A stretch of DNA of 57,497 nt, the filler included, from Stramenopiles sp. TOSAG23-3 (lineage: Eukaryota): NCBI GenBank assembly GCA_900128585.1. It is 3 parts of 3 records of this genome, joined end to end, with 100 filler letters (N's around TTAATTAATTAA, not from the genome) between each part and the next. Parts side by side here need not be neighbours in the genome. Positions count along the whole stretch, not along the records: positions 38,431 to 57,497 come from LT642409.1; 2 more parts are not named here. One strand, given 5' to 3'. The notes beneath the pieces are model-generated. The model was not told the DNA's origin and made no database searches. It saw nothing but the letters and a program-made list of their open reading frames with translations. Of this stretch, positions 22,002 through 57,497 are shown piece after piece. How positions within the stretch are numbered: position 1 is the stretch's first letter; every line of letters begins with the position of its first letter. Made by a program: the position numbers and the translations under genes.

Positions 22002-22210
22002 NNNNNNNNNNNNNNNNNNNNNNNNNNNNNNNNNNNNNNNNNNNNNNNNNNNNNNNNNNNNNNNNNNNNNNNNNNNNNNNNNNNNNNNNNNNNNNNNNNN
22101 NNNNNNNNNNNNNNNNNNNNNNNNNNNNNNNNNNNNNNNNNNNNNNNNNNNNNNNNNNNNNNNNNNNNNNNNNNNNNNNNNNNNNNNNNNNNNNNNNNNN
22201 NNNNNNNNNN
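22002..22210. other. Assembly gap
   Basis: Run of N. Confidence 0.99.
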
Positions 22211-32038: not shown

Positions 32039-32120
32039 NNNNNNNNNNNNNNNNNNNNNNNNNNNNNNNNNNNNNNNNNNNNNNNNNNNNNNNNNNNNNN
32101 NNNNNNNNNNNNNNNNNNNN
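32039..32120. other. Assembly gap
   Basis: Run of N. Confidence 0.99.
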
Positions 32121-38330: not shown

Positions 38331-38430
38331 NNNNNNNNNNNNNNNNNNNNNNNNNNNNNNNNNNNNNNNNNNNNTTAATTAATTAANNNNNNNNNNNNNN
38401 NNNNNNNNNNNNNNNNNNNNNNNNNNNNNN
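38331..38430. other. Artificial contig linker
   Basis: 44 N + TTAATTAATTAA + 44 N, identical to 19117-19216. Confidence 0.95.
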
Positions 38431-38574
38431 GAGAAGAGTGACTAAAATTTGGAAAAATTTGACTTGCTCGTAAATATTTTTGTACAGCGCAATCCGGCGT
38501 CGTTGCAGGGTGTTAATACATACATTTTAGCTTGATATTTTCTAGGAGAGCGAGTTACAGTGCGCGTTTTTTCT

Positions 38575-40005
38575 CTACTTTGGATTCTTTTCGACCACGG
38601 ACTTTAACATTTCAAATTGCTTTGCATTCTCCGCGTCCAGCACCCGCCCTGTTTTGGCCTTCACGTCCGACCCATAAGCAACGAACTTGTCGAACTTTTC
38701 CGCCTTCAAGTTCAAACTAAACTTGCTCAACTTATCGACAGTGTTGGCCATGTCCCACCTACTGCACAAACTCTCTATATGTCTCTCTTCTTCTTTCTTC
38801 AGCGCGATGTCCTCGTCGCCCTCGTCCACCAGCACTCCCATGAGAACTTCGTCCAAGCCCTCCTGCGCTTCTGTTTGATGGTGGCGATCTAAAAAGGAGA
38901 CTTCCGTCTCCCAAGACTCATTGCTATCGTCAAACTGTTTATTGTCCTTTGCTAGCCCGGCAAGGGTTTCTACATCGATGCAAGCATCCCCCTGAAAATA
39001 TTCGACATTCTTCCAGTCGACCGCGGCCTGCCCCGAATTCAATGCGGTGGGCTCGGAGAAAATAGCCTCGCTGTCGAAACGCTCTACTGCGCTATGGTTC
39101 AGCAAATTCTTTATCAACGAGAACATCGGGCTGTCGGAAGCCATTTTGTTCGATTCTGGTACTTTCACGGGGTTTGTGGATTTTGCTCTCTGAACGGACT
39201 CCGTGTCTTCGTTTAAGTTTTCGTTCGCGCCCATTCTAAACAGTGCCTGCCCGTGCAGTATCTCGTACAGTATGCAGCCAAAAGCCCACCAATCGTCTTT
39301 GGGGGAAAGTACTTTTTCTTCGTCTTCACTTCCAGAGCTGCCGTCGGGTGCATCATACAATACGTCTTCTAAAGCGTATATGTCGTTAGGACCCGTCGCA
39401 AGAACGTAGGAAGGGTACATACTAATTCGCACGTGCCCGCTGGGTGTGATCAACACGTTTGCCGCGCGCAGGTCTCCGTGCACCATGCCTTGCTTGTGCA
39501 AGCAGTCCAGGCCGCTCACGATCTCCGCGCCGAGCCTGCTCGCTGTTTCCAAATCAAACCCAGAACGATAGTTCAAACTCATCAAGTGCACTATGTCAAA
39601 AGCGTACGGGTTGGTTACGAGGTACCACGTTCGAAATGTTGGGGAGTGGAACGAGTGAAAAAGCCGGAGCAAGTAATGGTTTTCGAAGTCATGGGCAACT
39701 CTGGAAGCCTCTATCGTTTGCTCCAGTTTCACCGGGTTCTCCTCAAGCGCCTCGCGCCGAAAAGCCTTCAAACACACTTGCCGATCCGCTTGGCCTTCTA
39801 CAGTACAAACCCTGAGAGACTCTGCGGGTGTGTCGGTCAACTTGATCAAGTAGTTCGTCCGAAAATATCCAGTATCCACTGCAAAAGATTTGTTGTCTGT
39901 CCCCGAGGCCGCCGGCTCGTACTTGTAGCTATCGCCCACCCCAACCCGTCTCGGCGAACCCCCCGCCGTCGCTTTCTCGTTCGTCTTGCTTGCAGTACAT
40001 CCCAT
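38575..40005 (-). CDS. Protein kinase-fold protein, probable pseudokinase, likely N-acylated
   Basis: MGCTAS; VCLK; HGDLRAANVLI; DWWAFGCILYE; lacks GxGxxG and DFG (SMY at that position); APE appears as APD. Confidence 0.8.
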   Translation of the reverse strand: MGCTASKTNEKATAGGSPRRVGVGDSYKYEPAASGTDNKSFAVDTGYFRTNYLIKLTDTPAESLRVCTVEGQADRQVCLKAFRREALEENPVKLEQTIEASRVAHDFENHYLLRLFHSFHSPTFRTWYLVTNPYAFDIVHLMSLNYRSGFDLETASRLGAEIVSGLDCLHKQGMVHGDLRAANVLITPSGHVRISMYPSYVLATGPNDIYALEDVLYDAPDGSSGSEDEEKVLSPKDDWWAFGCILYEILHGQALFRMGANENLNEDTESVQRAKSTNPVKVPESNKMASDSPMFSLIKNLLNHSAVERFDSEAIFSEPTALNSGQAAVDWKNVEYFQGDACIDVETLAGLAKDNKQFDDSNESWETEVSFLDRHHQTEAQEGLDEVLMGVLVDEGDEDIALKKEEERHIESLCSRWDMANTVDKLSKFSLNLKAEKFDKFVAYGSDVKAKTGRVLDAENAKQFEMLKSVVEKNPK

Positions 40006-40995
40006 ATTGAGTTACACTGACGCCTGTGCCGTGACACTTGCTTTGACTTCAGCCGTCGCTTTACTTTGTATCTCTTTCCTAAAATTTGTAGAAACGGGCG
40101 GGTAATATTCCCATGGAAAAATCTCAGCCTATCCGGCCAAACAATCGAATGCAGACTATTAAAAATATATTAATAATAATAACGGCAACCCAACAACAAG
40201 CACAGCAGGACGGACGAAGAAAAAAGAAAGACAAAAGAAAGACAAAAAAAAGAAGATGAAATAGCATCAGTCGTCAAACAGAAAAAAACTTATTTACAAC
40301 CGATTCATCAACCAACATCATTAAAATGAGGACAATCTACATACACACACAATGAAAACCTTCCCGTTATTATTATTTAATATCCAGTTTATTTTTTTCA
40401 TCCGCCTGCCTGTGTAATGTACATTATTCGACTACGATGAGGTAGTATATAAGTACGAGGAGGAAAGGAGAAAATAAAGGAGCGCTCTTTTCTCTCTTCT
40501 CTCTCTCTTCTCTCTCTCTTTTTTTCCGTCCTGCCTGTGGACAAGTTGAACAAAAAAAATTAAGAAGAGAATATATATAATAATAATAGCATTATTATTA
40601 TTATATTACAACAAAGCAAGAAGAAGAAAGAAATCCTTTTTTTCTTCTTCTTCTTCTATTTTTTATTATTTTACGTACCGTACTACTACCAGGTACCAAA
40701 ACCAGGAACAGGTACCACGGGGGTACGGAAGAATATAAAAAATATTTTAATATAATAATAATACCAACTCCCTCTCTCGTATTTTTTTAGTGAAACAACA
40801 ATAACAAAATAAAACCCAACCAATACACTTGATGAACATCGCACACGGTGTGTATAAACTATTTTTGAATACTGAGGAGGGAAAAATCCTTCGTTTGCGC
40901 ATGCAATTTTTTTGTTTACTTTTATTGGAATCTGTTTTGTTTTGAAAGTGCTCCGATACAACAACAAAAGTATGCCGTTCTGCTCGTCAAACACT

Positions 40996-42705
40996 ATGGT
41001 GCACAAACTCACGCTCCTTTTGTTCCTTTGCTGCGCCGGACTAAGCGTTGCGCAAGGAACCACAACCAAAACGTTCGGAAATGCTTTGCAGGGCAAGCCT
41101 GCCGACGTCCTTACCAAAAGCTTGCAGGACAATGCTGCGACTAAGGTAATACCTGTAATTTGCAACGGGACGTGCGATGTCTCATCGTGCGACTTCGTTG
41201 GAGATCTGTGCTTGAACAGGATCGACTTTGCAGGTGGCAACTTCGACCGCCGCACAGGGGAGTCCTGCGCGCCAAACACTTGGGGGGTCCTTTTCGAGAT
41301 TCTCCTGTTTCTGTACGCAATGCTTGGCTTGGCAATCGTGTGCGACGACCACTTGTGTGTTGCGCTGGAACGACTGTGCGACGAATTGATGATTCGTGAG
41401 GACGTTGCCGGGGCTACTTTTATGGCCTTTGGCAGCGCTGCGCCAGAAATTATTGTCAATACTGTTGGCACGGTAAAGCAAGTCAGATCATTTCCTCCGA
41501 CACCCGCAGCCCTGGACGCAACAAACTTGGGGGTAGGGGCCATCCTGGGCAGTGGAATGATTGCCTTTTTGATCATCCCGGGCGCTTGCGCGTTGTCGAC
41601 CGGCGACGGCATTGAACTGCTGCTGAAGAGAAGGCCTTTGCTGCGGGACGTAAGTGCCTATGCCATGGCTTTGCTGTTGCTTTGCATTTTCTTTCACGAC
41701 GGTGTGATCATGCCGTACGAGGCGGGGATTCTGGTCGGCTTTTACGCGCTTTACGTATCGGTCGTGATCTTTGCCCCAAAGGTTCGTGAGGAGTACCGCC
41801 ACCGCATCCTAAAAAGACCAAAGAAAAAGCGAAAGAGTTTCGTAAATAAAAAGAGTAATGCCGGGCAAGCACCGCTCCTTTCGCTCGATGAAAGAACCCA
41901 AGATTTTGGCTCGGTGGACGACACCGCCGTTGCAATCGAGCCGAGCGACGATTCAACGAGGAAGACCGTCTCGTTCGCCGACAATGTGACTGCTAGTAGC
42001 ATTAATGGCGCCCCTGGTGCAGACGCGGTAGAAGGCAATTATGACGTTAATTTAATCGACGATGAAGACGGGAGTACGTCCGCGTTTGGTCGCCTTATCG
42101 AGTTTGTGGCGAGGCCGCTGACCTTTATGTTTGAATGGACTTGTGTCAATTGCGAAGAAGGGTCGAAATACCAGCACTACTACCCCTTGACTTTCCTTGT
42201 TTCGTTTATTTGGGTAGCAATGTTTAGTATGGTAATTAGCTCGTGCGTTGCACGGTGGACAGAGTTCACGCCGCCGTGGGCTAAAGGAAGTTTTTTTGGG
42301 CTGATTACAATTGCCATTGGCGCGGAAATCCCGGACACGATTCAGTCGGTAACCATGGCAAAGCGAGGCTATGGGAGCATGGCAGTATCGAATGCACTAG
42401 GCTCTCAAATCATCAATATTTTGCTTGGCCTTGGCCTGCCGTGGCTCATAGCGAATTTGGCAATGAAAGAGGGGCACTTGCAAGTTACGGATCACTCTGA
42501 CTTGCAATTTGCAGCGTTTTTCCAATTCGGAGCCGTTGCGCTTAACTTGTTGTTGCTGCTAGGGATGGCGCTCTATTGGGGACAAAATAAGGCGACGCTA
42601 ACGATAGGGAAAGGAAAGCTGTTCATTGCAGCTTATGCAGTAGTCGTAGGTTCTTACGTCTTGCTGATGTTGACAAAAGTTCACAAAGATCCTTGCAAAG
42701 AATAA
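40996..42705 (+). CDS. K+-dependent Na+/Ca2+ exchanger-like (NCKX/CaCA family)
   Basis: Signal peptide; LAIVCDD; alpha-1 DVAGATFMAFGSAAPE; alpha-2 IAIGAEIPD..GSMAVSNALGS. ATG 40972 is an alternative start. Confidence 0.92.
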   Translation: MVHKLTLLLFLCCAGLSVAQGTTTKTFGNALQGKPADVLTKSLQDNAATKVIPVICNGTCDVSSCDFVGDLCLNRIDFAGGNFDRRTGESCAPNTWGVLFEILLFLYAMLGLAIVCDDHLCVALERLCDELMIREDVAGATFMAFGSAAPEIIVNTVGTVKQVRSFPPTPAALDATNLGVGAILGSGMIAFLIIPGACALSTGDGIELLLKRRPLLRDVSAYAMALLLLCIFFHDGVIMPYEAGILVGFYALYVSVVIFAPKVREEYRHRILKRPKKKRKSFVNKKSNAGQAPLLSLDERTQDFGSVDDTAVAIEPSDDSTRKTVSFADNVTASSINGAPGADAVEGNYDVNLIDDEDGSTSAFGRLIEFVARPLTFMFEWTCVNCEEGSKYQHYYPLTFLVSFIWVAMFSMVISSCVARWTEFTPPWAKGSFFGLITIAIGAEIPDTIQSVTMAKRGYGSMAVSNALGSQIINILLGLGLPWLIANLAMKEGHLQVTDHSDLQFAAFFQFGAVALNLLLLLGMALYWGQNKATLTIGKGKLFIAAYAVVVGSYVLLMLTKVHKDPCKE

Positions 42706-43185
42706 ACTTTCCAAGATGTTGGTAAAAGCGTATTTGTTTTTATTTTTTTAAATAATATATATCATACCTGATTAGTAAAATCAACAACAGTGCGGTTTCT
42801 ATCTCGACGCTATACCTATGTAAAATCGTGTGAAGTGGCGTAATTTCGGATTCCTACTCTCTTTCTTCTCTGATGACCTCTGAAGGAGGGTTTTTTTGGT
42901 GTTGTTGGTTTTTTATTATACCAAGAAGAAGAAGGGGTTGTTGTTGTTTGGTACGGCGGTGTCTTGTTTCTTCTTCGTCTACTGCTATTCTATATACTAT
43001 CTTCTTTTTTTCTCTTCTTCTTCTTTCTTATTTATTTTATTACTACTACGAGGACTCATACAAATGAAAAAATCCATTGTTAAAGCCAAACCAAATTAAT
43101 CCCAATTAAAAATGGGGGGGGGCGTCCCTAGACAGACTAAGTACAAATACATTTTGCTTGTGATCGCAGTAATGAAACCGAAAAG

Positions 43186-45372
43186 ATGAGATCGTTGGCT
43201 ACAATACTTCTGTTGTTCCTTTCCGTTGGGGGCGTCTGTAATGCTGTTACCCAACAAGACCAGCACGCGGCCCGGGTCGAAGCACTGGTCGGAAACATGA
43301 CTTTGGATGAAAAAATATCTATGCTTCAAGGCAATACTGATCTTCATGGATACGTGGGCCGCACTGTTGGGGTGCCTCGCCTAGGCATACCCGATTTGAG
43401 GATGAACGACGGGCCTGAAGGGTTCCGTAATGCCGACCGGAAGTATGCGGGAACAACCACCCAGTGGCCATCAGGCTTGACGGCAGCACACTCGTTCAAC
43501 CGTTCGTTGATGCACACGTATGGAATAGCCATCGGAGAGGAATTCTACGGGAAAGGGGCGAACGTGTACTTCGGGCCTGGGCTGAACGTACAAAGGATAT
43601 CCAATGGTGGCCGATCGTTCGAATACCTTAGCGGAGAAGACCCGTTTCTTGGCTACGAGCTTGTACAACCAATTATCACAGGAGTCCAGTCGCAAAAGGT
43701 CATTGCAAATGCAAAACATTTCATTGACAATTCGCAAGAAGGTTCAATACCAGAAAATTCCACTGAAAAGTTTGGACGGGGGGATCGTCACTCTACCTCG
43801 GCTAGTATTGACAAAACTACGCAGATGGAAATGTACTTTCCGCCTTTTGAGGGCGCCGTCCGTGCAGGGGTGGCAAGCTTCATGTGTTCCAACAATCTCA
43901 TCAATGGGGAATATTCGTGCCAACACAATGCCACCCAAAATCAATTGTTGAAGGAAAGATACGGATTCAGAGGGTTTATTTGCTCGGATTACGATGGAAC
44001 GCGCTCGACAATTGACGCCGCGCTTGGCGGGTTAGATATTGCAATGCCTGGTCCTCCTGTGCGTCCAGATTATTTTGGCGGCATGCTGAAAAAGGAAGTC
44101 GGTCGTAATGTCCCCGAAAGCGTCGTGGACGATAAAGTTCGTCGAATATTGTGGGCAATGAGCTCCACCGGCGTGTTGGACGATACGAACCCAAACACTC
44201 CGGACAAAGACGTGACGTCGCCTGAACACGTTGCCCTCGCTCGCGAACTGGCCGCAGCATCGTGCATTCTGATCAAAAACGAAGACAGTACGCTGCCACT
44301 GGTTAAAAAAAGCAAAATTGCCGTCGTTGGACTCGCCGCCGATGGCAAAGGTGCAATTTATGGTGGATCCGGGTCGGGAAAAGTCACTCCAAAACAGCCC
44401 GTGTCCATCCTGAACGCCCTTCGCGCCGAGGAAAAGGGTGATATACCGTATACAAACGGAACAAATTTGTCTGCGATATCAGAAACTGTAAAAGGCTGTG
44501 ACGTTGTCATTATCGTTCTGGCACAGATATCAACCGAAGGGCGTGATCGAGCGACCATTGGCCTTCCTCAATCGGAGCTTGTCCGCGCTGTCTATGCCAC
44601 CACGCCAGCGCGCATTATTGTTGTGACGATAAGTCCTGGACCATTTTTGACGGATTTTGCTCCGTATGCCCATGCCATTGTTGATATGGGATTTCCCGGG
44701 GAACAGGAAGGGTTAGGATTGGTGGATGTGTTGATGGGACGCTACAATCCCAGCGGGAAACTGCCTCATACGCTGCCGCACAGATTGAATGATGTGGAAA
44801 TGACATCATCCCAATACCCTGGCATTCCTCCAACAAATCGTACAAAAAATGGATCCGCGCCACTTCGAACCTGTGGGTTCGTTCCGCCGATGAATCCTCC
44901 AGATAGTAAATGGGTGCCATGCTCCCCAACAACAGCCGAATACACAGAAAAGCTGCTGGTAGGCTATCGATGGTACGAACATCACAAAGTAAAACCAGCG
45001 TACGCATTTGGGCATGGCCTCAGTTACACGTCGTTTTCATACGAAAACCTACTCGTGAAGGCCACCGGTGGTGGGGGCGATGTCATCGCTTCCGTAAGCA
45101 TTACCGTGGGAAACACTGGTAAGTGCTTTGGGCGAGAGGTTGTTCAATTGTATTTGAAATACCCAGACAGCACCTACAAACAACTGCGTGGTTTTGAAGT
45201 AGCTGCCTTGGAACAAGGTGAGTCGGCATCGTTTGAGTTTGCGTTGACCCGTCGCTGGCTTTCGGCATGGAACGGGAAAAAAGATGGGTTTGAATTGGTT
45301 CATGGAAAGTTTGATGTTTATATTGGTTCATCAAGTTCTGATATTAGAGAAGTGGGAATATTATATATTTAA
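43186..45372 (+). CDS. Secreted GH3 beta-glucosidase-like glycoside hydrolase
   Basis: MTLDEKI, PRLGIP..NDGPEG, GRSFEYLSGEDP, AKHF, nucleophile FICSDY, NPSGKLP, FGHGLSYTSF, EVVQLY. Confidence 0.95.
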   Translation: MRSLATILLLFLSVGGVCNAVTQQDQHAARVEALVGNMTLDEKISMLQGNTDLHGYVGRTVGVPRLGIPDLRMNDGPEGFRNADRKYAGTTTQWPSGLTAAHSFNRSLMHTYGIAIGEEFYGKGANVYFGPGLNVQRISNGGRSFEYLSGEDPFLGYELVQPIITGVQSQKVIANAKHFIDNSQEGSIPENSTEKFGRGDRHSTSASIDKTTQMEMYFPPFEGAVRAGVASFMCSNNLINGEYSCQHNATQNQLLKERYGFRGFICSDYDGTRSTIDAALGGLDIAMPGPPVRPDYFGGMLKKEVGRNVPESVVDDKVRRILWAMSSTGVLDDTNPNTPDKDVTSPEHVALARELAAASCILIKNEDSTLPLVKKSKIAVVGLAADGKGAIYGGSGSGKVTPKQPVSILNALRAEEKGDIPYTNGTNLSAISETVKGCDVVIIVLAQISTEGRDRATIGLPQSELVRAVYATTPARIIVVTISPGPFLTDFAPYAHAIVDMGFPGEQEGLGLVDVLMGRYNPSGKLPHTLPHRLNDVEMTSSQYPGIPPTNRTKNGSAPLRTCGFVPPMNPPDSKWVPCSPTTAEYTEKLLVGYRWYEHHKVKPAYAFGHGLSYTSFSYENLLVKATGGGGDVIASVSITVGNTGKCFGREVVQLYLKYPDSTYKQLRGFEVAALEQGESASFEFALTRRWLSAWNGKKDGFELVHGKFDVYIGSSSSDIREVGILYI

Positions 45373-45486
45373 GTATATATTATTTGTATTCTAATATATA
45401 AATGTACCTATTAATAAGCATGCCATTATTATTTATTTTATAAAGAAGAGCTCCCCCCACATCATCAGCACAGCAGCTCACACACA

Positions 45487-45528
45487 ACAGCTCACAGCTC
45501 ACAGCTCACAGCTCACAGCTCACAGCTC
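45487..45528 (+). repeat. (ACAGCTC)6 tandem repeat
   Basis: Six perfect 7-mer units. Confidence 0.95.
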
Positions 45529-45887
45529 ACACGCCCCACGCCACCAAACGCACCAAACCCAAAAAACACCAAAAGCCACCAAACAAAATATAATAAAAAA
45601 AAACCGAAAAACAACGAGAAACCTCAAGTCGCAAAAAAGTAACCGAAATAATATATATTTTTTTAAATGAAATTTTTACTCAAAAAAGTAAATGGATAGG
45701 GCCAGGCAAACTACTTCAAACGAATAACTTGATATCAGAAAACGCGTGCACTGTTGACGTCCAAGTATTTTGTTTAAATATTTTTCAATCACTGCACATT
45801 TTGCAGCCGCAATCTTACCGAACTATATAGTCGAGACTGCAGATTCCGTGGACTTTGGGCAACGCGATGAATAACAACTTTAGCAAC

Positions 45888-46118
45888 ATGTGGGGATCTT
45901 CGATATTCCAAGCCTTATGCTTTATCACTGGAGTTTTATCAGTGTCTGCCGCGGGAGGGACTTACCGTCATCCGGACAAATTTGAAGTTCCTACTATTCT
46001 TTACGTAGTCGGTGGAACTTTGTGGACTCTGGTCTTTTTGGGGTGTTTTTGTTGTATCCGAGTCTTGCGCGACGAGTGGAGAGAGCGTCAAGAGAAGGTG
46101 TCAAAGAAATCTGATTAA
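45888..46118 (+). CDS. Small single-pass membrane protein
   Basis: Signal-like MWGSSIFQALCFITGVLSVSA, TM ILYVVGGTLWTLVFLGCFCCI, charged tail. ATG 45867 is an alternative start. Confidence 0.6.
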   Translation: MWGSSIFQALCFITGVLSVSAAGGTYRHPDKFEVPTILYVVGGTLWTLVFLGCFCCIRVLRDEWRERQEKVSKKSD

Positions 46119-46443
46119 GATTAAGGTACCATCAGAGAGCGCTACGTGGCACCGCAGCTTGTGAGCGTGTAGCATAATTGTTAACGAAATGGATTTTTCA
46201 TTTTTATACTTTGTAATTTCTAAAAGAACTGTGTACACACAAATGATACTAAACTAAACAGACCTAAATAATTTGTTTTTTCATACTAAACTCACAACAT
46301 TTTTGTATCATCCCGAAACACCCAAAAATTAAATTTTGGAGACCAATCTCGCCTCTCTGTTTAAACCATCTTTCGTCGCCGCTGACAGGTACCTTGCGGG
46401 CGAAATTTGTTTCTCGTGTACGCATGACCGCACCCGATCTTTC

Positions 46444-47688
46444 CTAATACACTTCTATGACTTCCTCGACCGTCCTGCTTGGCCCTATCATACCATTGTA
46501 CCCGAGGCTGTTCCCCCAACAGAATGTAACAAAATCGTACCGTAGGCCGCAACTGTGCCGTAAGCCCGTGCTTACCTCGATGAATTGCCACTTGTCGCTG
46601 TTCGGGCCGTTCATCTTCATGCTGGCTTTGGATGGAGCGTTTGTTTGGCCATCGCGATTGTCTCCCCAACAAGCCAACGAATTTCCACTGCCTTTTAACC
46701 CCACAATGTCGTGCAAATGGTCTTTGTGCAGCACGCACGCGTGCCGTTCCGCAACAGAAATTTTCAAAAATTGGCCGCTTGGAATGTGTGCTTGAACCAG
46801 CGGGGGGACCACCCCCCAGCATTTTATCTCGTGTGTGGCGGCGGCAATGCCACAGGCGTACCGCGGCCCAGCGGCAATAGTGTTAAACTTAATGCCTTTC
46901 GGTGGGGTAAGGGCGGACGATAGAGTCTTTTTGCGGTTCCCTTCGATGACTTCGGTGCCCCAGCAATCGACGGTTCCCTCGCGCAGTCCTACGTTGTTGT
47001 CATCAAAACCTCCGTCCCCCTTCACAATCCCGCATGCAAAAGTTTTACCTACAGCCAACGACGAGTACGTAGATACAAACGGCTCCAAGGTCGCGTACCC
47101 TTCGCTAGCCGGCGAAAGCTCACCAGTAGACAAGACAGCAGCGACGAACTTTGTCGGCTGCGGCGGTGCAATATCGTGTTCCCCGAAGCAGACAACAGAG
47201 CTGTTGCTATATAATAGTCCACAAATGTCTACCGGCCCCGAAACAATACTACTGAACTGCAAATCGCTCAAGTCCACGGGAACGATGGACGCTGCCCCTC
47301 GCCCCCAGCAGTGCAACAGCCTGGTGTGCCGGTTGATCCCGCAGGCGTGGTGGTACCCTATGGATATGGAACTAAACTGTGTCTCCAACTCGTTAGGCTT
47401 GTCTTGTACAAATTTTTCGCCCTTGTCCCCCCAGCACCTCAACCTTCCGCCGTTCCCGAGCAACGGCTGCTTCTCAATGGCGCACGTCGACCCCTTCGAC
47501 GTCCGCACGCTCTCGATTTTTATACTATCCTTTGGTGTCGACATCCACTTCAAGCATCGCTGACGCCTACTGTCATAATTTGTACAAAGTTCCCCTGGGT
47601 TGAAGGCGGTAGCACAGCCCAGCAAAAGAACCTTCAGAAGCAGAACCCATCGGGGCTGGCAGACTGCAGACGAACGACAATTGTCCAT
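46444..47688 (-). CDS. Secreted RCC1/BLIP-II-like (CRINKLY4-type repeat) beta-propeller protein
   Basis: Repeats SIGYHHACGI..LHCWG, AVGKTFACGI..VDCWG, AAGPRYACGI..IKCWG, STGLRHSCGL..TFCWG; hydrophobic N-terminal segment. Confidence 0.8.
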   Translation of the reverse strand: MDNCRSSAVCQPRWVLLLKVLLLGCATAFNPGELCTNYDSRRQRCLKWMSTPKDSIKIESVRTSKGSTCAIEKQPLLGNGGRLRCWGDKGEKFVQDKPNELETQFSSISIGYHHACGINRHTRLLHCWGRGAASIVPVDLSDLQFSSIVSGPVDICGLLYSNSSVVCFGEHDIAPPQPTKFVAAVLSTGELSPASEGYATLEPFVSTYSSLAVGKTFACGIVKGDGGFDDNNVGLREGTVDCWGTEVIEGNRKKTLSSALTPPKGIKFNTIAAGPRYACGIAAATHEIKCWGVVPPLVQAHIPSGQFLKISVAERHACVLHKDHLHDIVGLKGSGNSLACWGDNRDGQTNAPSKASMKMNGPNSDKWQFIEVSTGLRHSCGLRYDFVTFCWGNSLGYNGMIGPSRTVEEVIEVY

Positions 47689-48500
47689 TCGCAAGACGTG
47701 CAAGGGATGTGTACGGTCGTTCCTTCGATCGTTCGTTAATGCTCTGGGTATATAATGTTCTACTAAACGCAAACACCACCACTTTCTCTCAACAATTTTA
47801 ACACAGATGGGGCTACTACTTTATTGTTAAAAAATTGGATAATTGAATCGCTTCAAATTTAACAAACGACGCGCATGCAAATTGAACAAACAAAAAAATG
47901 CGATCATTATTTTCTGTGTTTTTTTGGGTTTTTTTTTTTTTAAATAATAATTATTTGTTGTTGTTGTGATGATATGATGATGATGCGATGATTATTTTTT
48001 TAATAATTATTAGTTAATAAAATAATAAAATTTTTAGTAGAATCAATCCGTACCTCTATCATACTTCCTATTATTCCTATATTAAATTTAATTATTTCAA
48101 TTTTTATGATGTTTTATTTTTTATTTTTCTCATCACGGTCGGAAAAATAACAGCTGTATAGCAAAGGAATAATTGAAACACGTTGAGATAAATAATAATA
48201 TTTTTTTTTTATTTAACCAACAAATCATTACGAATTAAAAGGACAGAGCAAAGAGCAAGGTGGTTGGAAAGTCGAATAAAAGGTACTTGTAGTATTTCGC
48301 ATGTTGTAATATGGATTTAACAGTAGTACCTGATTGGTTAATATATATAATAATAGGTATAATTAATATTAGTATATAAAATAATTGTTTTTAAGTATTT
48401 AATAATGATCTCATTTGCCTTTCTCCTCTCTCTCTCTCTGCTCTCTTCTCTCTGCTTTGCCTTTTCTCCTCCTCTCTCGGTGCGGCTCTCTCTGCTTTGC

Positions 48501-48605
48501 GGTTTGGTTTGGTTTGGTTTGGTTTGGGTTTGGTTTGGTTTGGTTTGGTTTGGTTTGGTTTGGTTTTGGTTTGGTTTGGTTTGGTTTGGTTTGGTTCGGT
48601 TGGTT
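48501..48605 (+). repeat. (GGTTT)n pentanucleotide microsatellite
   Basis: About 20 near-perfect units. Confidence 0.95.
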
Positions 48606-49448
48606 CTATAATTTAAAATTGGTTTCCGTAGTTACATAATAGTTAGACTATTATAAATAATGAGTCTCTTTTACAAGTGGGCTCCCATCGTATTTATAAT
48701 AAATATCCTCGTACGAGGACATCAAAGATCATAAACTAATAAATAAGTGGCTTAGCCGACGTAATGTTATATAGAGACTATCAAATACACTGAGGACTGT
48801 AGTTGATTGATGCCCAACCAACCACAAAGAAAATTATATTTAATATTTAGTCCTACTTAAATATATAGGATTTGAAGGAGTACAAAATTAACATATTCTT
48901 ATTCTTTATTCTATTTATTTAGATCTCGTAGATCTGTACTTATTAAAACTGTTGTCCACTATAATACCGTACCGGTACCATATTGATTATACAATTAATA
49001 ATTCTCCGTCCTCCTCCTGTCCTAGTCTCTTATCCTATTATCCTCTTTCTTTCTTCGTTCGGTGGTCATTTTTTTTTATTTTTATTATTATTTTTGCTTA
49101 TGATGAAGAAGAATAAGAATAATAAAATAATAAAATAATATTATTATAGTCGTCTATTATTATAAAAGAAAGGAGTTTCTTTCTTTCCGTTCCGTTCTTT
49201 CTTTTCTTTACACCCATTGTACACATTGTCATCATATGACAGAAGATTGGTTTGGATAAATGAATTGAGGATTTTGCATAGTATTTCGTACGAGCAAAGA
49301 TTAACGTGAAATTATAAACGTTGCTTCCTTCTGTACCGTTTGTTTTCTGTGGGCTTCGTTCGATCGTCTCCAAGGCACTGTTTCCGCCTTTTGACACCCT
49401 ACAGGCTGTTTGGCACGACACACGCGAGGCTGCTTTCTCTGAAATAAA

Positions 49449-52184
49449 ATGTTGCGTAAGGTAACCTCTGCCTTCCTTCTGTGCGTGTGTGCTTTCGTGG
49501 CGTTCGCCGCCGCGCAGGGGCCAGCGTCTGGTCGTCCGTCGTCGACCCCGGAGCAACAGAGGGACTCGTCAAAAATAGTCCCGGTGAAGCCTGCGCCGCT
49601 CGCTAAGGCGGACGTTGGAATGAAAATTGGTGCACCAATTGCAAAAGGGAACGTTGGGGTGACAGAATTCATTATGGAAGGGGAGGTGGAGGACATCCAG
49701 TGGGTTGGTTCGAACAAGCGGAGCGTTCTCGTGCTCACGACCGCGTCCAATTTGTACCGAAGCGGTGATGAGGGGAAAACCTGGAGAAACGTCATTGACT
49801 CCCTTCCCGCCCTCAGCTTCAAAGGGGCGCCGTCGGGGACGAACACGGTGCGGAAAGTGAAGAAGCTGGTGGTTTCCTCAGTCGACGCGAACCTCGTTTT
49901 TATCGTCGGCCAAGGCACAAGTCACTGGGTGACCAAAGACGCCGGGCGAACGTTCGTCGCCGTCAACAGCGTCGTGAAGTTCCACGACGTGGTCATGCAC
50001 CCAGCCGACAAGACCCGCATCCTCGCCAGCAGCATGGCGGCCAAGTGCCACGACGCCAAAGCGAACGGGCTCTGCTACAAAAGCGTGTACGCCACCGAAG
50101 ACTTTGGTGCCTCCTGGATCAAAGTCACGGACTACGTGGTGCAGTTCGACTGGGCGCACAACCTGGGCTCGCACCAGGCGGACAGCTTGCCCCCCACTGC
50201 AATGTTTGCGACCGTGTTCAACAAGAAAGTCGGAAATCAAAAATTTGGACACTGGGACAAGGACATTGATTTCGTCCGGAGCGACGATTTCTTCAAGTCC
50301 AAACCGACCGTCTTGGTGCCGCACGGGAACAGGTTCTTGTTTACCAAAAAATTCTTGTTCGTGGCCCAAGTGAGCCCGTTGCACGATACGGAAGTGGAAC
50401 TTCAAATGTCCAGCGACGGCGCTAGAACGTTTTTGCGTGGAACATTGCCGTACCGGATAAAGCAGCATTCCTATACAATCCTGGACACCAGCGAAGACAC
50501 CGTGTTCTTGCACGTCAACCACGAAGGCGAAGGCGCGAAGTGGGGGAACGTGTACATTTCAAACGCAGACGGTCTCAACTACACTTTGTCCCTACCCCAC
50601 AATAGTCGAGAGAGCTCGGGGAAGTGCGACTTTGAGAAAATTGAAGGCCTGGAAGGCATATACCTGGCAAACTTTATCGACATGGTCGGCAGCGATTCGG
50701 ACGACACGACGGACGACAGCACCATGTCGCAGGAAAATAGCGCAAAAGACAAACAAGTGAAGCGGGGGAAAAAGCCGCCGCCGAAGATGAGGTCCGTCAT
50801 CACGTTTGACAAGGGGGGGGTGTGGTCGTACTTGCACGCGCCCAAATTCGATGCCAACGGGAAACCGGTCAAGTGCGACAGCACGGACTGCTCGCTGCAC
50901 CTTCACGGGGTGACAGACGAATGGGGGCCATTTTACAGCACGGACACGAGCGTTGGGCTCATCATGGCGACCGGCAACATTGGCACAAGCTTGAGCGACA
51001 ACCAGGACGAAATCAACACATATTTTAGCAGGGACGCCGGTTTGTCGTGGTTTGAAGTCGCCAAGGGGTCGCACATTTATGAGTTTGGAGACCACGGTGG
51101 TCTGATCGTAATGGCAAACGACATCAAGGCCACGGACACAATTTATTACAGCTGGAACGAAGGAATGACGTGGAGCCCCTTCAAATTTTCAGACAAGAAG
51201 TTAGAAATAGACAACATAATTATTGAGCCAAGTGCGACTAGCCAAAAATTCATGGTCTATGGTAGCCGAAGCGTCAGCGGCACGAGCGACAAAAACTCGA
51301 ACTCGGTCGGGGCCGTCTATTTCCTAGACTTCGGCGAGCTGCATGCCAAGCGTTGCAAAGGGGTGGAAGCCCCCGGAACGCCCGACAGTGACTACGAGAA
51401 GTGGACCCCAAGCGACGGTCGATTGGGGGACAAATGCCTGCTCGGTCACCAGGTCACGTACATACGGCGGAAGCGGGAGGCCCAGTGTTTCAACGGTGAA
51501 AAATTAGAACGCCGAACCTTTGTGAAGCACTGCAAGTGCGCAGAGAGTGACTTCGAGTGTGACGTAGGGTACGCCCGCAGCCTGGAGGGCGGACCTTGCA
51601 ATCTGCTGTCCCCCAGTTCGAAGCCGAGTAGCGCCGTGCCGGACGTGTGCCCATCTGGCACCTCCTATAAGGTGCTGAACGGGTACCGACGTATCGCAGG
51701 AGATACTTGCTCCGGTGGCGTCGATCGGTCGCCAACAGAGCTTCCGTGCCCACGGAGCCTTAGCCACACGGGTGCGATTGTCCTTTTCATTGTCCTGTGT
51801 CTGATTATAGGGCTCTATTACAGTGGAAAATCCAAAACTTTTTCCGGTGCCATAAACTCGAGCAACCAATTTAGTCAACAGGCGATTCGCGGTGGGTCCA
51901 CCGCCTTTTCGATATGTAGAAACCTTTTGTGCATATGCTGCCGCAATGCCTCTAGTGGGATGTCCAGTGCCGGGTACAACCCTGTAGGAAAAGGCGCATT
52001 GCCGGAAACGGCCGCTGGTTACGAGGCCTACGAAGGATACCAAGACAAGGAGGATTCATCGGAAGATAGTGAATTCGAGGAGGAGGAAGAAGACGAAGAT
52101 GCGATGCCAATGGCCACTCCAGTGCATAATCGCAACACCAATTCCGGTAGCAACGATTTGTTGGATCTAGGGGACTCGCTTTAA
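49449..52184 (+). CDS. Sortilin/VPS10-domain sorting receptor
   Basis: Signal peptide; BNR/Asp-box repeats (SGDEGKTW, TEDFGASW, TFDKGGVW, SRDAGLSW, SWNEGMTW); 10CC region (CAESDFECDVGY, GYRRIAGDTCSGG); TM; acidic tail. Confidence 0.95.
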   Translation: MLRKVTSAFLLCVCAFVAFAAAQGPASGRPSSTPEQQRDSSKIVPVKPAPLAKADVGMKIGAPIAKGNVGVTEFIMEGEVEDIQWVGSNKRSVLVLTTASNLYRSGDEGKTWRNVIDSLPALSFKGAPSGTNTVRKVKKLVVSSVDANLVFIVGQGTSHWVTKDAGRTFVAVNSVVKFHDVVMHPADKTRILASSMAAKCHDAKANGLCYKSVYATEDFGASWIKVTDYVVQFDWAHNLGSHQADSLPPTAMFATVFNKKVGNQKFGHWDKDIDFVRSDDFFKSKPTVLVPHGNRFLFTKKFLFVAQVSPLHDTEVELQMSSDGARTFLRGTLPYRIKQHSYTILDTSEDTVFLHVNHEGEGAKWGNVYISNADGLNYTLSLPHNSRESSGKCDFEKIEGLEGIYLANFIDMVGSDSDDTTDDSTMSQENSAKDKQVKRGKKPPPKMRSVITFDKGGVWSYLHAPKFDANGKPVKCDSTDCSLHLHGVTDEWGPFYSTDTSVGLIMATGNIGTSLSDNQDEINTYFSRDAGLSWFEVAKGSHIYEFGDHGGLIVMANDIKATDTIYYSWNEGMTWSPFKFSDKKLEIDNIIIEPSATSQKFMVYGSRSVSGTSDKNSNSVGAVYFLDFGELHAKRCKGVEAPGTPDSDYEKWTPSDGRLGDKCLLGHQVTYIRRKREAQCFNGEKLERRTFVKHCKCAESDFECDVGYARSLEGGPCNLLSPSSKPSSAVPDVCPSGTSYKVLNGYRRIAGDTCSGGVDRSPTELPCPRSLSHTGAIVLFIVLCLIIGLYYSGKSKTFSGAINSSNQFSQQAIRGGSTAFSICRNLLCICCRNASSGMSSAGYNPVGKGALPETAAGYEAYEGYQDKEDSSEDSEFEEEEEDEDAMPMATPVHNRNTNSGSNDLLDLGDSL

Positions 52185-52349
52185 CGTGCCAGTGGGTGGT
52201 GAAAGAGCAGCGGGAAAAAAAGGTTTTTTAACGAAAAAGTATCATTATGACAATAAGAAGAAAAATTTAAAACAAGAACAAAATAAATTATCTATCATAA
52301 GCATTTAACGAGTTAATCCTAAATAATAGCCATTAGTTTGTTTTTTAAT

Positions 52350-55084
52350 TTAATTTAAATCTGGCTCTGTCACACTCATATTTTTCATCAAATGCCGGGT
52401 AACAAAACCGTTAAACTTTAAAGGCTCTTCGTTATCAAGAAAAAATGTTTCCCTGTCATCACTCTCCAACATCTCCGTCCCAAACATGCATGATGTTGTC
52501 CTCCCTAATGCATAGACAATATGGGGGGTTTGGTTCATGGATTCTTTAATAAACTCTGGAAGCCAGCTCTGGTCAAATCGGCATACCACAACCAAACCAG
52601 ATCTATCGCTGCTTGGGGGGCTGGCAGCTTCCCCTTGATTGCTTCGAGGAGTGTACACTACGTTCAAAACCTCAATGTCTACTTTTCTGTTTTGCTGCAG
52701 AGACCAAAAATGGTCAGCAGCCTTCGACGGCGAGTACGTAAGGTTCAGGTGAAGCTTTGAAACTTCACGCAGCTCCGTTTGAGAAAATCCGGTATTGGTA
52801 GCGATTTCATTGAGCAGATCTACATGATGTTTTTGTAAAGGAACATCTAGCGCCCAATACTTAGTCTCAACAACATCCACGTAGTTAAACGGTGACCATG
52901 ACTTGCCTCCGATTATGTGGTCACTAAACAAGTCGATAAGATTCTGCTCCATTCCGTCTATCGCTAATAGTGGAGTTTGAAGACAACCTGGAAATAGCTT
53001 CAATTTTTCTAACAATTTCCGTGTGTCCATTAAGGTCTCGAACATTCTTGTTCCGGTACCGTGCAATCTCTCCTTGAAACTGTCGACTGTATCGCCCGAC
53101 AAATCAAGTGGGCATAGAGCCACAAATTTTACGTCGTAAGATTCCACAATTTTCGAGGACTGCAGCAGCCGTTTTAATCGTGTAAATTCGGAACAGTTCA
53201 GTATACTTTTGCCATAAAAAACTATCTCGTTGCTCCTGGTGGTGGTCAAAAACGACTCTTCAAAGTCGTTTTCCGTGGTGTATTTGTCCGCCTCGATTAT
53301 TGCTGCGCTTACGTCCTCCTGGTATTTTAGTTTGTTGAAACTTCCGGACAGAATTGATGATGCTCCTGCCCCGTACGGGACGCACGTGACCATGCATATT
53401 GTAACGCTTGGCTTCTCATTTGCTTGGACAGAAATCGATCCGTTCAAGTATTTTTCTTCGAACTGCTCAAATTCTTTCAAGAAGAACCCCTTGGCCAAAT
53501 TCAATCGAACCGCTGGCCTTTGTTGTACATACAGAGCCCACTGCTGCATTTTGTTGCGGTGGACTATGCACTGCTTAGCAGGAATTCTCCAATTGTGGAA
53601 AAAACTTTCAATTTGCCGCAAAAACATTTTGGCCCCGTGCTCTAATAACACAGAGATTATGTTTCTATTTCCAAACGTGCGCTCAAGGTAAGGCACCAGC
53701 ATCCATGCCTTTGGTGGAACGTGCAAATCGGTAACTAAGTCCGGCCAAGGCAGCAACTTCGTTTTCAAATTCATCCGCTCGTCGTTAAATACAAAAATAT
53801 GACCGTGGTGTAAATGTGCGACTCTTTCAGGGTCAAACTTTGACGCTTGTTCGTAAAAATCTTCGACAACTTTGTCGCTGGATAAACTGAGTATTGCGGC
53901 ATTCAATTGCGATTGGCTGCTGGACATACCAGCGTAGGAATTATCTTCTTGTGCTCTATTCCAATTCAAAAAGTACACGGACACCATCTCTGGGGGTATA
54001 TTATCAAATAGATGGTAGTCGTTTTTGTCTTTTTTCTTAATTTTTTGGTTAAACTCAACGGAGTGCATCCTCGAAAGCACGGCTTTAACGTGCTCTATGG
54101 ACGTCATCTTCGCTTTATATGTCCACTTTAAAAACTTGCTCTTGTTCCTAATGTACGGCGATCTATCTGGTCCTGCAACAAGCCGTTGCAGGCGCATGTT
54201 TGTATTTAAACTTCTGTTCCTGAATATGTTTGACAGCTGAGACATTTCTTCAAAAAAATCGATTTTGACACGTACTAGCTTCGCAACCAGGCCTTTCAGC
54301 ATCTCTGTAGTTGGAAATATGAGTGGAGGGTAGTAGAATTGAGTGTTAGCGTGTGCTGGATGATTTTGGACCGTATAATGAGATACTTACGTCCTTGAAT
54401 ATCCCCATGATCGAGCGGCGGATCAACCATTTTGGAGATACACTTAGTGGACACAAAAAAGGCCCACAATTCAGCGTATGTGCTAAACCTGTAAATTTCT
54501 TGTAAAGCGGTAATAACTGCGTCTGCATTGTCTATGCCAATCCACCACGTTTCGTTCGGTACCAAATTAAACAGTGCAGCAATCCGAATAGTCTGATCAA
54601 CACTCAACAGTGTATCTTTCTGAAAACAGTGCGTCAAAACGATGTATGAAAGGATCGGGGAGGAACCGCTGTCCCCCCACTCTTCTTGATCCGTCACGCA
54701 TTCAAAGTCTAAAGTTATTTGGTAAGACTCTAGGAATAATATGAGCCTGTCTAGTTTCTCTTCGCCTACTAGAGACACCAATATTTTGTCGGCGACCCCT
54801 GTGAGCTCATCGTTACAGGAATGCTTTGAGAACGTTACCAGTTTCCCTCTAAGAGCGGTTACGATGTACGGGACTCCAGAATGCCGAAGGGATAGCAGCA
54901 CGCCACACTGAGTCCCAGATTTACCTTGTCGGTCCTCTAAAAGGCCCTCTAACTGCGACGAAAAATCGGAATCGAATGAAACAAAATCGTGAGTAGTACG
55001 CTCATCCTCTCCAACATCGGATTGAAAGGAAGCGAGGGTGCTCACGGACGTGCAATTTGAAAGTATTGAGTCAACCTGTTCCAT
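52350..55084 (-). CDS. Plant-type tRNA ligase (RNL) homologue with degenerate catalytic motifs, 2 exons (55084-54391, 54304-52350), about 882 aa
   Basis: Collinear similarity to recalled plant RNL segments: SLRHSG, FSKHS, FECVT..GDSGSSP, LVPNETW, spliced DHGDIQGQMLKGLVAKLV, YLERTFGNRN, QQWALYV; then kinase-like and 2H-like (HLNL, PHIV) regions. Confidence 0.78.
54305..54390 (-). mobile_element. Introner-like spliceosomal intron, copy 1 (86 nt, phase 1)
   Basis: GTAAGT..GCTAAC..TACAG; removal joins the two ORFs in frame; 78 of 86 positions identical to the intron at 56271-56361. Confidence 0.85.
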
Positions 55085-55559
55085 GCCGAAACCGAACCTC
55101 TGTTGCCCCTCTTACTACCTCTTTTTGCTGGTTTTGGAGCATGCTGTTTATCGCTTGGTCGATTTTTGTACCGATTGATTTTTTGAAAGCTACGATACGA
55201 TTACAGAGCCAAACCATCGTTGTGTTTCCACGCTTCTCTCAATGACTGTTGCCCAACATATTATTTTGTTGCTTTAGTCACTTTGCTTCTTCTAAGCAAT
55301 GCTATATACCTGTTGTTATTATAGAATAAAATAATGTCTGCTTTCATTTCTCCTCCTCTGTTCGTTTTTTCACAGACTTGCTGTTCCATTTCAACTCCTT
55401 CCTAGTTCCTTTCGACATTTATTTTTTCCAAACTTTCAACGAAAACCAAAAGGCCAAATAAAACGTCTTTCTTTACACAGGGCTTTAAGTATTTTACTAA
55501 AATAACTTTCTTCTTAAATATATTTTCCAATTTAATGGGCGCGGCTTTGATGTACCAAA

Positions 55560-56976
55560 TCAATTGCCATTCGTCGTGGCCTCTGGCTCAGTTTTCAGCT
55601 CCGCGTTTGGCACAGCTTCTGGCTCAGTTTTATGTTCAGCTTCAGCGTTTGCCTCCGCTTTTTCGGCGCGGGCGTTGAATGCGTTTAAGTATTCAGAATC
55701 TGGGAAAATGTACTTGGTCCCAAAATATCTCTGGGTGTTGCTCAAATAGTTCAAAAAATCTTGCAAGTAGGCCTGCAATTTTTGTGAACGCTCCGTTTTC
55801 ATGTCGCACATGGACAATAGCACGGGGAGCTTTACAAACAGGCGCAATAGGTGCTCCACGCCATACTTTAGGGATGGTCGTAACGTGCTTGAATCAGGTG
55901 CAGATTTTGATGGCGAGATTGGAGTCTCGGCGCTGCACTCGGGTGCAGCCACGCCTGCGCCCACGCCTGAGTTTACGGATGATCCGATCATCAGTTTATC
56001 GTATTGCTGCCTTTCCAGACGGTACAGCAAACAACGCCCTAAGGAGGCATTAAAAAACTCTTCGATTCCGACAGCAACTTCTTTGTACGCCTTCAGCGCA
56101 TCGCTGTTATCGCTCAATTTCTTTGCCTCTTTCCGCGCGTTCAAGTATTCTGACAAAACGGTCTTTACGCACGGTGTCCTGGGCAAAGAAACTAAGCGCT
56201 TGTCCTGCGCCACCATTTCCCAGTCTTGCACGAGGCGCTTTTTTAAACTTAAAGATATGTTGAGCTTGAACTGTACGCGTGTTGGAAATATGAGAGGAGG
56301 GTAGTAGAATTGAGTGTTAGAATGTGCTGGAGGGTTTTTGACCGAATAACGAGATACTTACGTTCTCCACGTATGACGTGTTGTCAATTTCTTTCCTTGA
56401 ATTGACCGACATGTTACCCAAGCGGTTGCCTGAGCGCGCTGATTTTACATCGTCGCTGATGACGTGCTTCTCTTTGACGACCCGTTCCCTTTTGGGCTTG
56501 GGTTGCCGTTTCGCGGTCTTTGCTTTTTTTCCCCGCGTGCGGGCGGCGCCCTGTTTTCCGGCGTCGGTCGTGACGGGTCCAAAGGCTATTTCCTGCTTGC
56601 GTTTGCGTTCCAATGCTTTGCGCTCTTTCTCTTGCCGTACCAAAGATTTTTGTATGTCCCGGTTCTCTGGGGTGTTGTCGTAAACAAACTCTTGCTCCAC
56701 CCACGCATCAAATCGTTTTGACCACCCGTTGTAGTGAACAAAATATGCGCAAAGGCTCTCCTTCCCATCTTTCTGAGGGGCAGCTTCGATTTTCAAAACT
56801 TTTGCGTGGAACAAGTTTGGGCCCCACTGGCACAAAAGCGCGTCCCCCACTTTAAATCTTACTTTGCTGGGCACTGGAAAATCCACTTCTTCTGGTGCAT
56901 GATCTTCTACCTGCTCTAAACTGGATTCCTCCGCTTCTGGTTCCAAACTCGCGCTGGGGCTACCTTCCGTGCTCAT
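55560..56976 (-). CDS. MRG15/Eaf3 family chromatin protein, 2 exons (56976-56362, 56270-55560), about 441 aa
   Basis: Chromo-barrel AKVL..YFVHYNGWSKRFDAWV; MRG domain LKKRLVQDWE, LVSLPR, LLYRLERQQY, YGVEHLLRLFVKLP. Confidence 0.93.
56271..56361 (-). mobile_element. Introner-like spliceosomal intron, copy 2 (91 nt, phase 0)
   Basis: GTAAGT..TCTAAC..TACAG; removal gives YVEN|FKLNISLSLKKRLVQDWE; near-identical to 54305-54390. Confidence 0.85.
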
Positions 56977-57351
56977 TGTCAACTACAACAAAGTAAAGTT
57001 CTTTTTAAATAATGAAGACACAACTCTACACCAGTTTTGTAAATTTTTTGCTTTATCCAGAATGTTTTGGTCCTAGTTCTTAATGCAAAAAATTGTTTCA
57101 TTCGTATCCTCTATATATATTAAAATACGAACCAACGATGAAATCGTTAAATGTCAAAAAAATGAAAAGTTAAATTGTCTTTGCTTCTTCTTCTTTTTTT
57201 TTCTTCTCTTCTTCTTCTTTTTTTTTTTCTTCTTTTCTTCTTCTCCTCTTCTCTTCTTCTTCTTGGCGCTTGGCGGCTTGAGAAGAGGAGGATGGATGGG
57301 GTTGGTCGTCCGGTATTGTATTTTTATTGTATTCTTCTATTATTATTTTAG

Positions 57352-57497
57352 AAAAGAGAAGAAGAAGAAGAAGAAGAAGAAGAAGAAGAAGAAGAAGAAG
57401 AAGAAAGAAAGAAAGAAGAAGAAGAAGAAGAAAGAAGAAAGAAGAAGAACAAGAAGAACAAGAAGAAGAAGAAAGAAAGAAAGAAGAAAGAAGAAAG
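57352..57497 (+). repeat. (GAA)n/(GAAA)n purine tract at the window end
   Basis: Direct inspection; a complementary CTT-rich tract lies at about 57184-57263. Confidence 0.95.

Follow-up and report, generated by a model that had tools for sequence, protein, structure and literature searches.

An intron shared by two unrelated neighbouring genes of a marine stramenopile, probably the result of low-copy intron duplication

Two adjacent genes carry near-identical introns

We analysed a stretch of 57,497 nucleotides (nt), filler included, from Stramenopiles sp. TOSAG23-3 (assembly GCA_900128585.1); this whole stretch is called the window in the following. In the part that comes from record LT642409.1 (positions 38,431 to 57,497) two adjacent genes lie on the minus strand, a tRNA-ligase-like gene (gene A) and a gene of the MRG family (gene B). 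Each is interrupted by one short intron, and the two introns are nearly identical. The features of the locus are:

52350..54304, minus strand: gene A, exon 2 (2 nt, 650 codons and the stop codon), kinase-like and CPD-like parts of a tRNA-ligase-type protein
54305..54390, minus strand: intron 1, in gene A, 86 nt, phase 1, with a GTAAGTAT donor, a CTAAC branch-site motif and a TACAG acceptor
54345..54349, minus strand: putative branch site CTAAC of intron 1, 41 nt into the intron and 40 nt from the acceptor, a function suggested by the consensus
54391..55084, minus strand: gene A, exon 1 (231 codons and 1 nt), diverged RNA-ligase (adenylyltransferase-like) part
55560..56270, minus strand: gene B, exon 2 (236 codons and the stop codon), PF05712 (MRG) at 3.5e-43, profile positions 20-188 of 190
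56271..56361, minus strand: intron 2, in the chromo+MRG gene (gene B), 91 nt, phase 0, 90.7% identical to intron 1
56276..56280, minus strand: ACGCG (5 nt), just before TACAG in the MRG copy, the sole indel between the copies in the pairwise alignment
56316..56320, minus strand: putative branch site CTAAC of intron 2, by consensus motif
56362..56976, minus strand: gene B, exon 1 (205 codons), chromo/Tudor-knot part, PF22732 (MSL3-chromo) at 3.3e-15 and PF11717 at 4.9e-11

The pair had been noticed in an initial annotation made from the sequence, in which the first 50 nt quoted as the intron correspond to 54341-54390 on the minus strand without a mismatch. Our pairwise alignment agrees with the likeness of about 91% given there: 78 of 86 aligned positions are identical, and the copies differ by eight substitutions (three transitions and five transversions) and the 5-nt gap. 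A 25-mer common to both introns, searched with up to three mismatches, has two sites in the window and none in 100 shuffles. When GTAAGTA and TACAG were left out, the intron interiors matched at 66 positions, whereas 2000 shuffles gave 47.6 on average and 55 at most. The likeness of the pair is thus far above chance, and the splice signals alone do not produce it. The verified intron of a pectinacetylesterase gene, which served as a control (12609-12683, minus strand, 75 nt), also contains CTAAC, but has only GTAAGTA and ACAG in common with the intron pair.

The copies are 1,971 bp apart, and the likeness ends at the splice sites, as had been proposed. In the exons flanking the two introns 9 of 30 positions are identical upstream and 7 of 30 downstream, which is the random level; a segmental or same-gene duplication, in which the adjoining exon would be copied too, does not agree with these values. 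The single likeness in the flanks is AC directly before both GT donors (GGAC and GAAC). With a slash marking the intron position, the exon sides are GAC/AG and AAC/TT, neither of which is a classical protosplice site. Reading frames and alignments with homologues place the introns in different phases, phase 1 (GGA C/AG) in gene A and phase 0 (AAC/TTC) in gene B. The substitutions between the copies are clustered: seven of the eight lie in the 34 nt from the donor heptamer to the branch motif and one in the 40 nt from the branch motif to the acceptor (Fisher p = 0.02). This could be due to constraint on the 3' half or to partial homogenisation.

The spacer between the genes is variable. At 55189-55258 an independent DNA metagenome contig has 111 other letters in place of 70 bases, an indel or replacement polymorphism.

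Host genes and splicing

The protein encoded by gene B has the architecture of the MRG/Eaf3 family, an N-terminal chromo/Tudor-knot region and a C-terminal MRG domain, and all three Pfam matches are above the curated cut-offs. Nine longer related proteins were found and the four best were aligned (447-598 aa, 54-40% identity); a near-length search for relatives found none closer than 42% identity. At the position of intron 2 the predicted junction reads ..SYVEN/FKLNISLSLKKRLVQDWEM (..SYVEN/FKLNISL..), compared with ..EYIEHFKLNLGLNLKKRLVQDWEM (..EYIEHFKLNLGL..) in the homologues, and no residue is gained or lost relative to any of the four.

Gene A is more diverged. The conceptual protein has no Pfam match of its own. 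Over 221 aligned positions (query residues 29-231) exon 1 shows 36% identity with P0079, a Triparma protein with the Pfam domain RNA_lig_T4_1, and a HMMER search with exon 2 returned 16 proteins at E <= 1e-3. Pfam analysis of eight of these 16 homologues gave one RNA_lig_T4_1, one weak tRNA_lig_kinase (below the curated cut-off) and one tRNA_lig_CPD match. Gene A has collinear homology with proteins of about 1000 aa that bear these ligase-type domains, and the view of the initial annotation that the two host proteins are unrelated holds: one is a chromo+MRG (Eaf3-like) protein, the other a diverged tRNA-ligase-like protein. The junction of gene A, ..HGDIQG/Q/MLKGLV.. with the split codon C/AG, aligns to a contiguous ..QGEVLEGFV.. 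in all six homologues of at least 900 aa.

Both splices restore the conserved protein exactly and in frame, which is strong indirect support for splicing. We infer that both sequences are introns of the spliceosomal type and that they are spliced in vivo. The open reading frame (ORF) that starts at the methionine after intron 1 (MLKGLV.., 650 aa) belongs to a protein cluster of eight members, of which six are full length with the same start and two are C-terminal fragments; all are identical at no fewer than 647 of 650 positions over the aligned part. No intron-less form of gene A of about 880 aa was found in the length range that would include it. One protein (P0002, EukProt g7327.t1) appeared to be a relative of gene A with 82% identity and was rejected, being the same sequence minus a piece dropped by the gene model.

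Catalysis by the ligase, kinase and CPD modules of such enzymes depends on the lysine of a KxxG motif, a P-loop of the form GxGK[ST] and two HxT motifs, respectively. Gene A (52353-55084, minus strand) is altered at each of the presumed catalytic motifs of the homologues: it has RHSG for KHSG, KGLV for EGFV and GAGASS for GGGKST, and at the CPD-type motifs HLN for HVT and HIV for HVT. A tRNA ligase of the Trl1/RNL type would contain these modules with their catalytic motifs intact. Gene A retains an open frame of 882 codons and is present in RNA libraries. Judged by its motifs, it probably encodes a ligase-like protein for which activity as a ligase is unlikely, possibly a pseudoenzyme paralogue.

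Gain and age of the intron pair

The initial annotation had suggested that orthologues should be inspected for empty sites. In the MRG gene the result is uniform, since all four related proteins (54-40% identity) read through the site of intron 2 without interruption. The nearest of them (54%) belongs to a cluster with a member that EukProt labels 'Stramenopile-MAST_4'. Members of the related MRG clusters lie on contigs of up to 41.6 kb, 13.3 kb and 8.9 kb, and these contigs are presumably genomic DNA with unspliced ORF calls. An empty site in four of four relatives is most simply explained by a gain of the MRG intron in this lineage. Here we have homologous introns at non-homologous sites in unrelated genes, with at least the MRG copy absent from related lineages, which upholds part of the original interpretation.

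An independent contig of 4,183 nt from a marine DNA metagenome (X2) spans both introns, and a contig of a JGI metagenome (L001) carries intron 2 with its flanks. The X2 contig differs from the window at three single bases in 4701 bases, one of them inside the introns and two elsewhere. The intronic difference is:

56321, plus-strand reading: A/C polymorphism in intron 2, A in the window and C in both X2 and L001

The C allele corresponds to a G on the intron strand, which is the base found in intron 1, and with this allele the copies differ at seven sites. Since two independent sequences carry the base of intron 1, the allele of the window is probably derived.

The distance between the intron copies is 0.093 uncorrected and 0.099 after Jukes-Cantor correction, and 0.081 with the metagenome allele. 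A divergence of about 9% between the copies, compared with three differences in 4701 bases in the population, means that the duplication long predates the present population diversity. The earlier description of the intron as part of a recently active element is not borne out by these values.

Number of copies

The initial annotation saw the pair as members of a candidate introner family. Within the data searched, which comprise the window, a JGI scan, IMG/VR and one DNA metagenome (at a likeness of at least 80%), two copies were counted, which does not support a family. A search of the window, which contains about 25 genes, at the sensitivity of blastn-short gave no third copy; the next best matches were 12 nt exact or 19 nt at 89%. 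An exact 21-mer common to both copies was found in one JGI metagenome contig, which is the same MRG locus, and had no match in IMG/VR. In the DNA run X2, in which 94% of the words of the locus are present, five records matched the stretch at a likeness of at least 80%; one of the five covers the introns and is the locus itself. The same search reported unrelated matches elsewhere on the stretch down to 35 nt at 86% identity. Word depth in X2 is about 3 and contigs show presence, not absence, so that this is a weak negative.

Taken together, the searches suggest a low genome-wide copy number. The copy count in the window alone excludes a density like that in Micromonas, in which introners number thousands per about 22 Mb (PMC4815162); tens of copies could still exist. 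The probability that two random points in the window fall within 1,971 bp of each other is 0.067.

Transposon hallmarks and RNA structure

The initial annotation reported neither a terminal inverted repeat (TIR) nor a target-site duplication (TSD), and we agree. Neither copy has a TSD of any length. In both, the last intron bases differ from those that precede the donor, and the downstream exon does not begin with the first bases of the intron. TSD models with shifted boundaries (AC, AG or ACAG) were inspected by eye and rejected, as with each of them bases would be left over or lacking at the conserved protein junction. No TIR belonging to the intron pair was present among the 25 longest of the 137 inverted pairs in the window. 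Introners of the DNA-transposon type are recognised by TSD and/or TIR, and the pair shows neither in these searches.

The introns have minimum free energies of -2.3 and -1.6 kcal/mol, which is ordinary compared with shuffled sequences (z -0.13 and +0.86). On neither strand of either intron was the fold better than that of shuffles (z -0.13 to +1.0), and the consensus fold of the pair has three pairs and no compensatory change. Rfam gave no match in the whole window at the gathering score and none at E <= 1 in 54200-56500; a search for tRNAs in the window found none. A reading of the introns as hosts of a snoRNA or another non-coding RNA was rejected, because fold and covariation are absent.

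How the intron may have been copied

At this locus an intron of an intron-poor marine protist was duplicated once into an unrelated gene next to it, an event of an already known kind. As to its nature, we somewhat favour a low-copy duplication, with two or very few members, that did not involve a transposon with TIR or TSD; in this the routes through RNA and through DNA are taken together. The fuller statement, that the low-copy duplication came about by RNA-mediated intron transposition, is tentative. It comes first in our ranking, followed in this order by a multi-copy introner family, DNA-templated copying, a conserved functional element and an artefact.

In the RNA-mediated transposition that we tentatively propose, one self-sufficient intron of ordinary size (GTAAGTAT, CTAAC, TACAG) would have been copied exactly from GT to AG into the co-oriented neighbour gene, thereby creating a new intron of a different phase 1,971 bp away. 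The spliceosome might have inserted the excised intron, by reverse splicing, into a nascent RNA of the neighbouring gene or into a read-through transcript, and the intron-bearing RNA would then have been reverse-transcribed and recombined into the locus. An exact copy from GT to AG is what reverse splicing of an excised intron predicts, and the adjacency of the genes on the same strand could fit the proximity of nascent transcripts. Length (86 and 91 nt, 75 nt in the control intron) and folding energy are ordinary and match the low-copy class of duplicated introns known from fungi, not the introner-like elements (ILEs) described there.

Several points speak against this proposal. Reverse splicing, reverse transcription and recombination are all conjectural steps. 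Reverse splicing does not predict the AC before both donors, which would fit a DNA or cDNA copying process primed by microhomology but has a probability of about 1 in 16 of arising by chance, and the adjacency of the copies is at least as naturally explained by templated repair in cis. The low copy number is drawn from one low-depth metagenome and one exact 21-mer scan, and copies below about 80% identity would escape the copy-number searches. The nearest homologue of gene A has an identity of only 36% and is known from an annotated gene model, in which introns are already removed. We infer the direction of copying, and since gene A is without an informative close relative, either copy may be the parent and both could stem from a third copy. 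Finally, none of 19 RNA contigs from three metatranscriptomes (X15-X17) crosses either junction. The closest of them stops at 56245 and misses the acceptor side of intron 2 by 25 nt, and as the cover by RNA contigs is patchy over the exons too, this zero is uninformative either way.

Two of these points are part of the case for copying at the DNA level, in which a double-strand break in one gene would have been filled from the neighbour 2 kb away in cis, by template switching or microhomology-mediated end joining. The copies lie 1,971 bp apart on the same strand, the AC before both donors might be the priming microhomology, and neither TSD nor TIR was found. Exact boundaries would follow, since only a complete intron survives in coding sequence. 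However, there is no microhomology at the 3' junction (AG/AGATG compared with AG/TTCAAG), an insert of 86 nt with both ends at splice sites needs a strong selective filter, and two shared bases are a common coincidence at the rate given above. This route, which is likewise conjectural, is in our view quite unlikely. A multi-copy introner family is also unlikely, but ranks ahead of it. Here an element without TIR or TSD would be dispersed genome-wide and the two copies would be close by chance or through local hopping. Introners are defined by the sharing of similar introns between unrelated genes at non-homologous sites; some known families are without TSD and TIR, introners are commoner in aquatic species (PMC9860276) and the locus is marine. 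On the other hand, both copies in the 57.5 kb lie within 2 kb and none in the other approximately 55 kb, a closeness with the low random probability of 0.067. No further contig turned up in the metagenome with 94% of the locus words, which is weak evidence, the shared 21-mer led to one JGI contig of the same locus, and the divergence of about 9% gives no sign of current activity. Put in other terms, the pair may reflect a local, spliceosome-mediated transposition into the transcript of the co-oriented neighbour, made while both genes were being transcribed at the locus and then fixed in the DNA, or else may be the tip of an introner family without TIR and TSD; this combined formulation we consider doubtful.

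Much less probable is the explanation that the sequence is a conserved functional element (an intronic non-coding RNA or a regulatory or splicing element) kept by selection, and not a record of mobility. The concentration of seven of the eight substitutions upstream of the branch motif (Fisher p = 0.02) hints at constraint on the 3' half, but there is no Rfam match, no fold above shuffles and no covariation, and a copying event would still be needed to reach two unrelated genes, with the MRG intron absent in relatives. We regard this as improbable. An artefact, either an assembly chimera or unspliced sequences in broken genes, is very unlikely and already largely refuted. In its favour, the scaffold of the window has gaps (six N runs) and no RNA contig joins across either intron. 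However, the independent contig of 4,183 nt spans both introns and the JGI contig carries intron 2, which rules out the assembly chimera that the initial annotation had named as a possible refutation. Furthermore, six of the eight database variants of the exon 2 ORF of gene A start at the same methionine after the intron (the other two are C-terminal fragments), both junctions restore a conserved in-frame protein and long open frames are kept in both genes.

Comparison with known intron duplications

Near-identical introns in fungi have been divided into three classes by Collemare et al. (2013): duplications within the same gene, low-copy introns in unrelated genes, and high-copy, long and structured ILEs (PMC3609843). 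The fungal low-copy introns of van der Burgt and Collemare, 302 members in 24 species (PMC3609843), are the closest match to our pair. In both cases nearly the same intron stands in unrelated genes, the members are few, length and folding energy are ordinary and no flanking exon was copied, and within the data searched the pair has the features by which the low-copy introns were recognised. The low-copy introns are fungal, whereas the present pair is found in a marine protist. Its copies sit in adjacent genes 2 kb apart. With the ILEs the pair shares the absence of TSD and TIR and the exact intron boundaries, and for ILEs a spread through RNA, for instance by spliceosomal retrohoming, has been proposed (PMC3609843). 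However, ILEs number in the hundreds, have about twice the length of regular introns and show stable predicted structures with compensatory changes (PMC3609843), whereas the introns described here are short and unstructured; neither the stable structure nor the greater length of an ILE was found in them.

The introner elements of Micromonas and Aureococcus and the introners of Gozashti et al. resemble the pair in the sharing of an intron between non-homologous sites, in canonical splice signals, in co-orientation with the host genes and in their occurrence in marine microbes (PMC4815162, PMC4540971, PMC9860276). Those families have from four to thousands of copies (3171 complete D-IE1 in CCMP1545), whereas two copies are known here and no TSD, TIR or autonomous partner was found. 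The survey by Gozashti et al. (2022) retained families from four introns upwards, and introners were found in 39 of 230 aquatic compared with 35 of 1367 non-aquatic species (PMC9860276); of our pair, two copies were counted in the data searched. The literature searches, in which 'MAST' also matched unrelated words, brought up no paper that links introners with MAST lineages.

The transpositions by reverse splicing described for Mycosphaerella and Oikopleura are similar in that the gained intron has a homologue among the other introns of the genome and that nothing but the intron was copied (PMC3443670, PMC4122922). According to these sources, 14 unambiguous events of intron transposition were listed by 2012, on indirect evidence, and the process had never been demonstrated in vivo (PMC3443670; PMC4122922). 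A study of the intron-lariat spliceosome from 2024 discusses implications for intron transposition (PMC10996645).

The host lineage may be a marine stramenopile related to MAST-4, as suggested by the one cluster label mentioned above. The closest named relative of gene A comes from Triparma, which is likewise a stramenopile, and the sulfate permease of the window gave no taxonomic hint in the ESM Atlas. For MAST-4, co-assemblies are described as compact, with 0.36-0.56 introns per gene and 34-44% GC (PMC5269757). The window is compact too: it contains about 25 genes, most of them with a single exon, has a GC content of roughly 39-56% and is AT-rich in the spacers. Many marine and seawater metagenomes contain the locus, and in 14 DNA runs at least half of its words are present. 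To our knowledge this would be the first case of intron duplication in a MAST-like stramenopile.

The origin of new spliceosomal introns is debated: introner transposons explain bursts of gain, and one-off copies rest on few indirect cases (PMC3443670). The locus is a clean example in this respect: introns are few in the genome, the boundaries are exact, hallmarks of a transposon are absent, the orthologous site in relatives is empty, and donor and recipient are 2 kb apart. This closeness could make an RNA route and a templated-repair route distinguishable. If local reverse splicing is the true explanation, the locus would be an unusually clean natural case of a mechanism never shown in vivo. 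As a single pair in an uncultured organism it has limited weight.

Other observations in the window

The initial annotation counted only one other intron in the window. One is indeed verified, the control intron at 12609-12683; the word 'only' is less secure, as there is one further, unverified candidate:

21250-21417, plus strand: candidate intron, 168 nt, ending in TTAG, with a possible short first exon from 21236 (ATGAACTACTTCGTAC), then GTAAGTAGAA.., and AC before the donor

Upstream of the MRG gene, at 57170-57497, lie long CTT and GAA microsatellite arrays, the length of which differs in the JGI contig L001.

The window has six N runs with 467 N in total (within 19117-19216, 22002-22210, 32039-32120 and 38331-38430). 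Two pairs of N runs flank a TTAATTAATTAA linker, which is a scaffolding artefact and also yields a 100-nt 'inverted repeat' (I1).

A motif, AATTGGCTGTTATTT (in its fuller form AAAATTGGCTGTTATTTAAG), occurs 12 times in the window with up to two mismatches, compared with 0.22 occurrences expected. Its sites are:

6234, 6265, 10870, 15224, 18754, 24294, 24425, 24487 and 34239: motif AATTGGCTGTTATTT
15380, 24518 and 24573, minus strand: motif AATTGGCTGTTATTT

All copies are located in AT-rich spacers, apparently tens to hundreds of bases past stop codons and oriented like the gene upstream. The motif is thus a candidate signal for the 3' end, for termination or for polyadenylation. Behind the stop codon of gene A, at 52318-52348, lies a degenerate copy.

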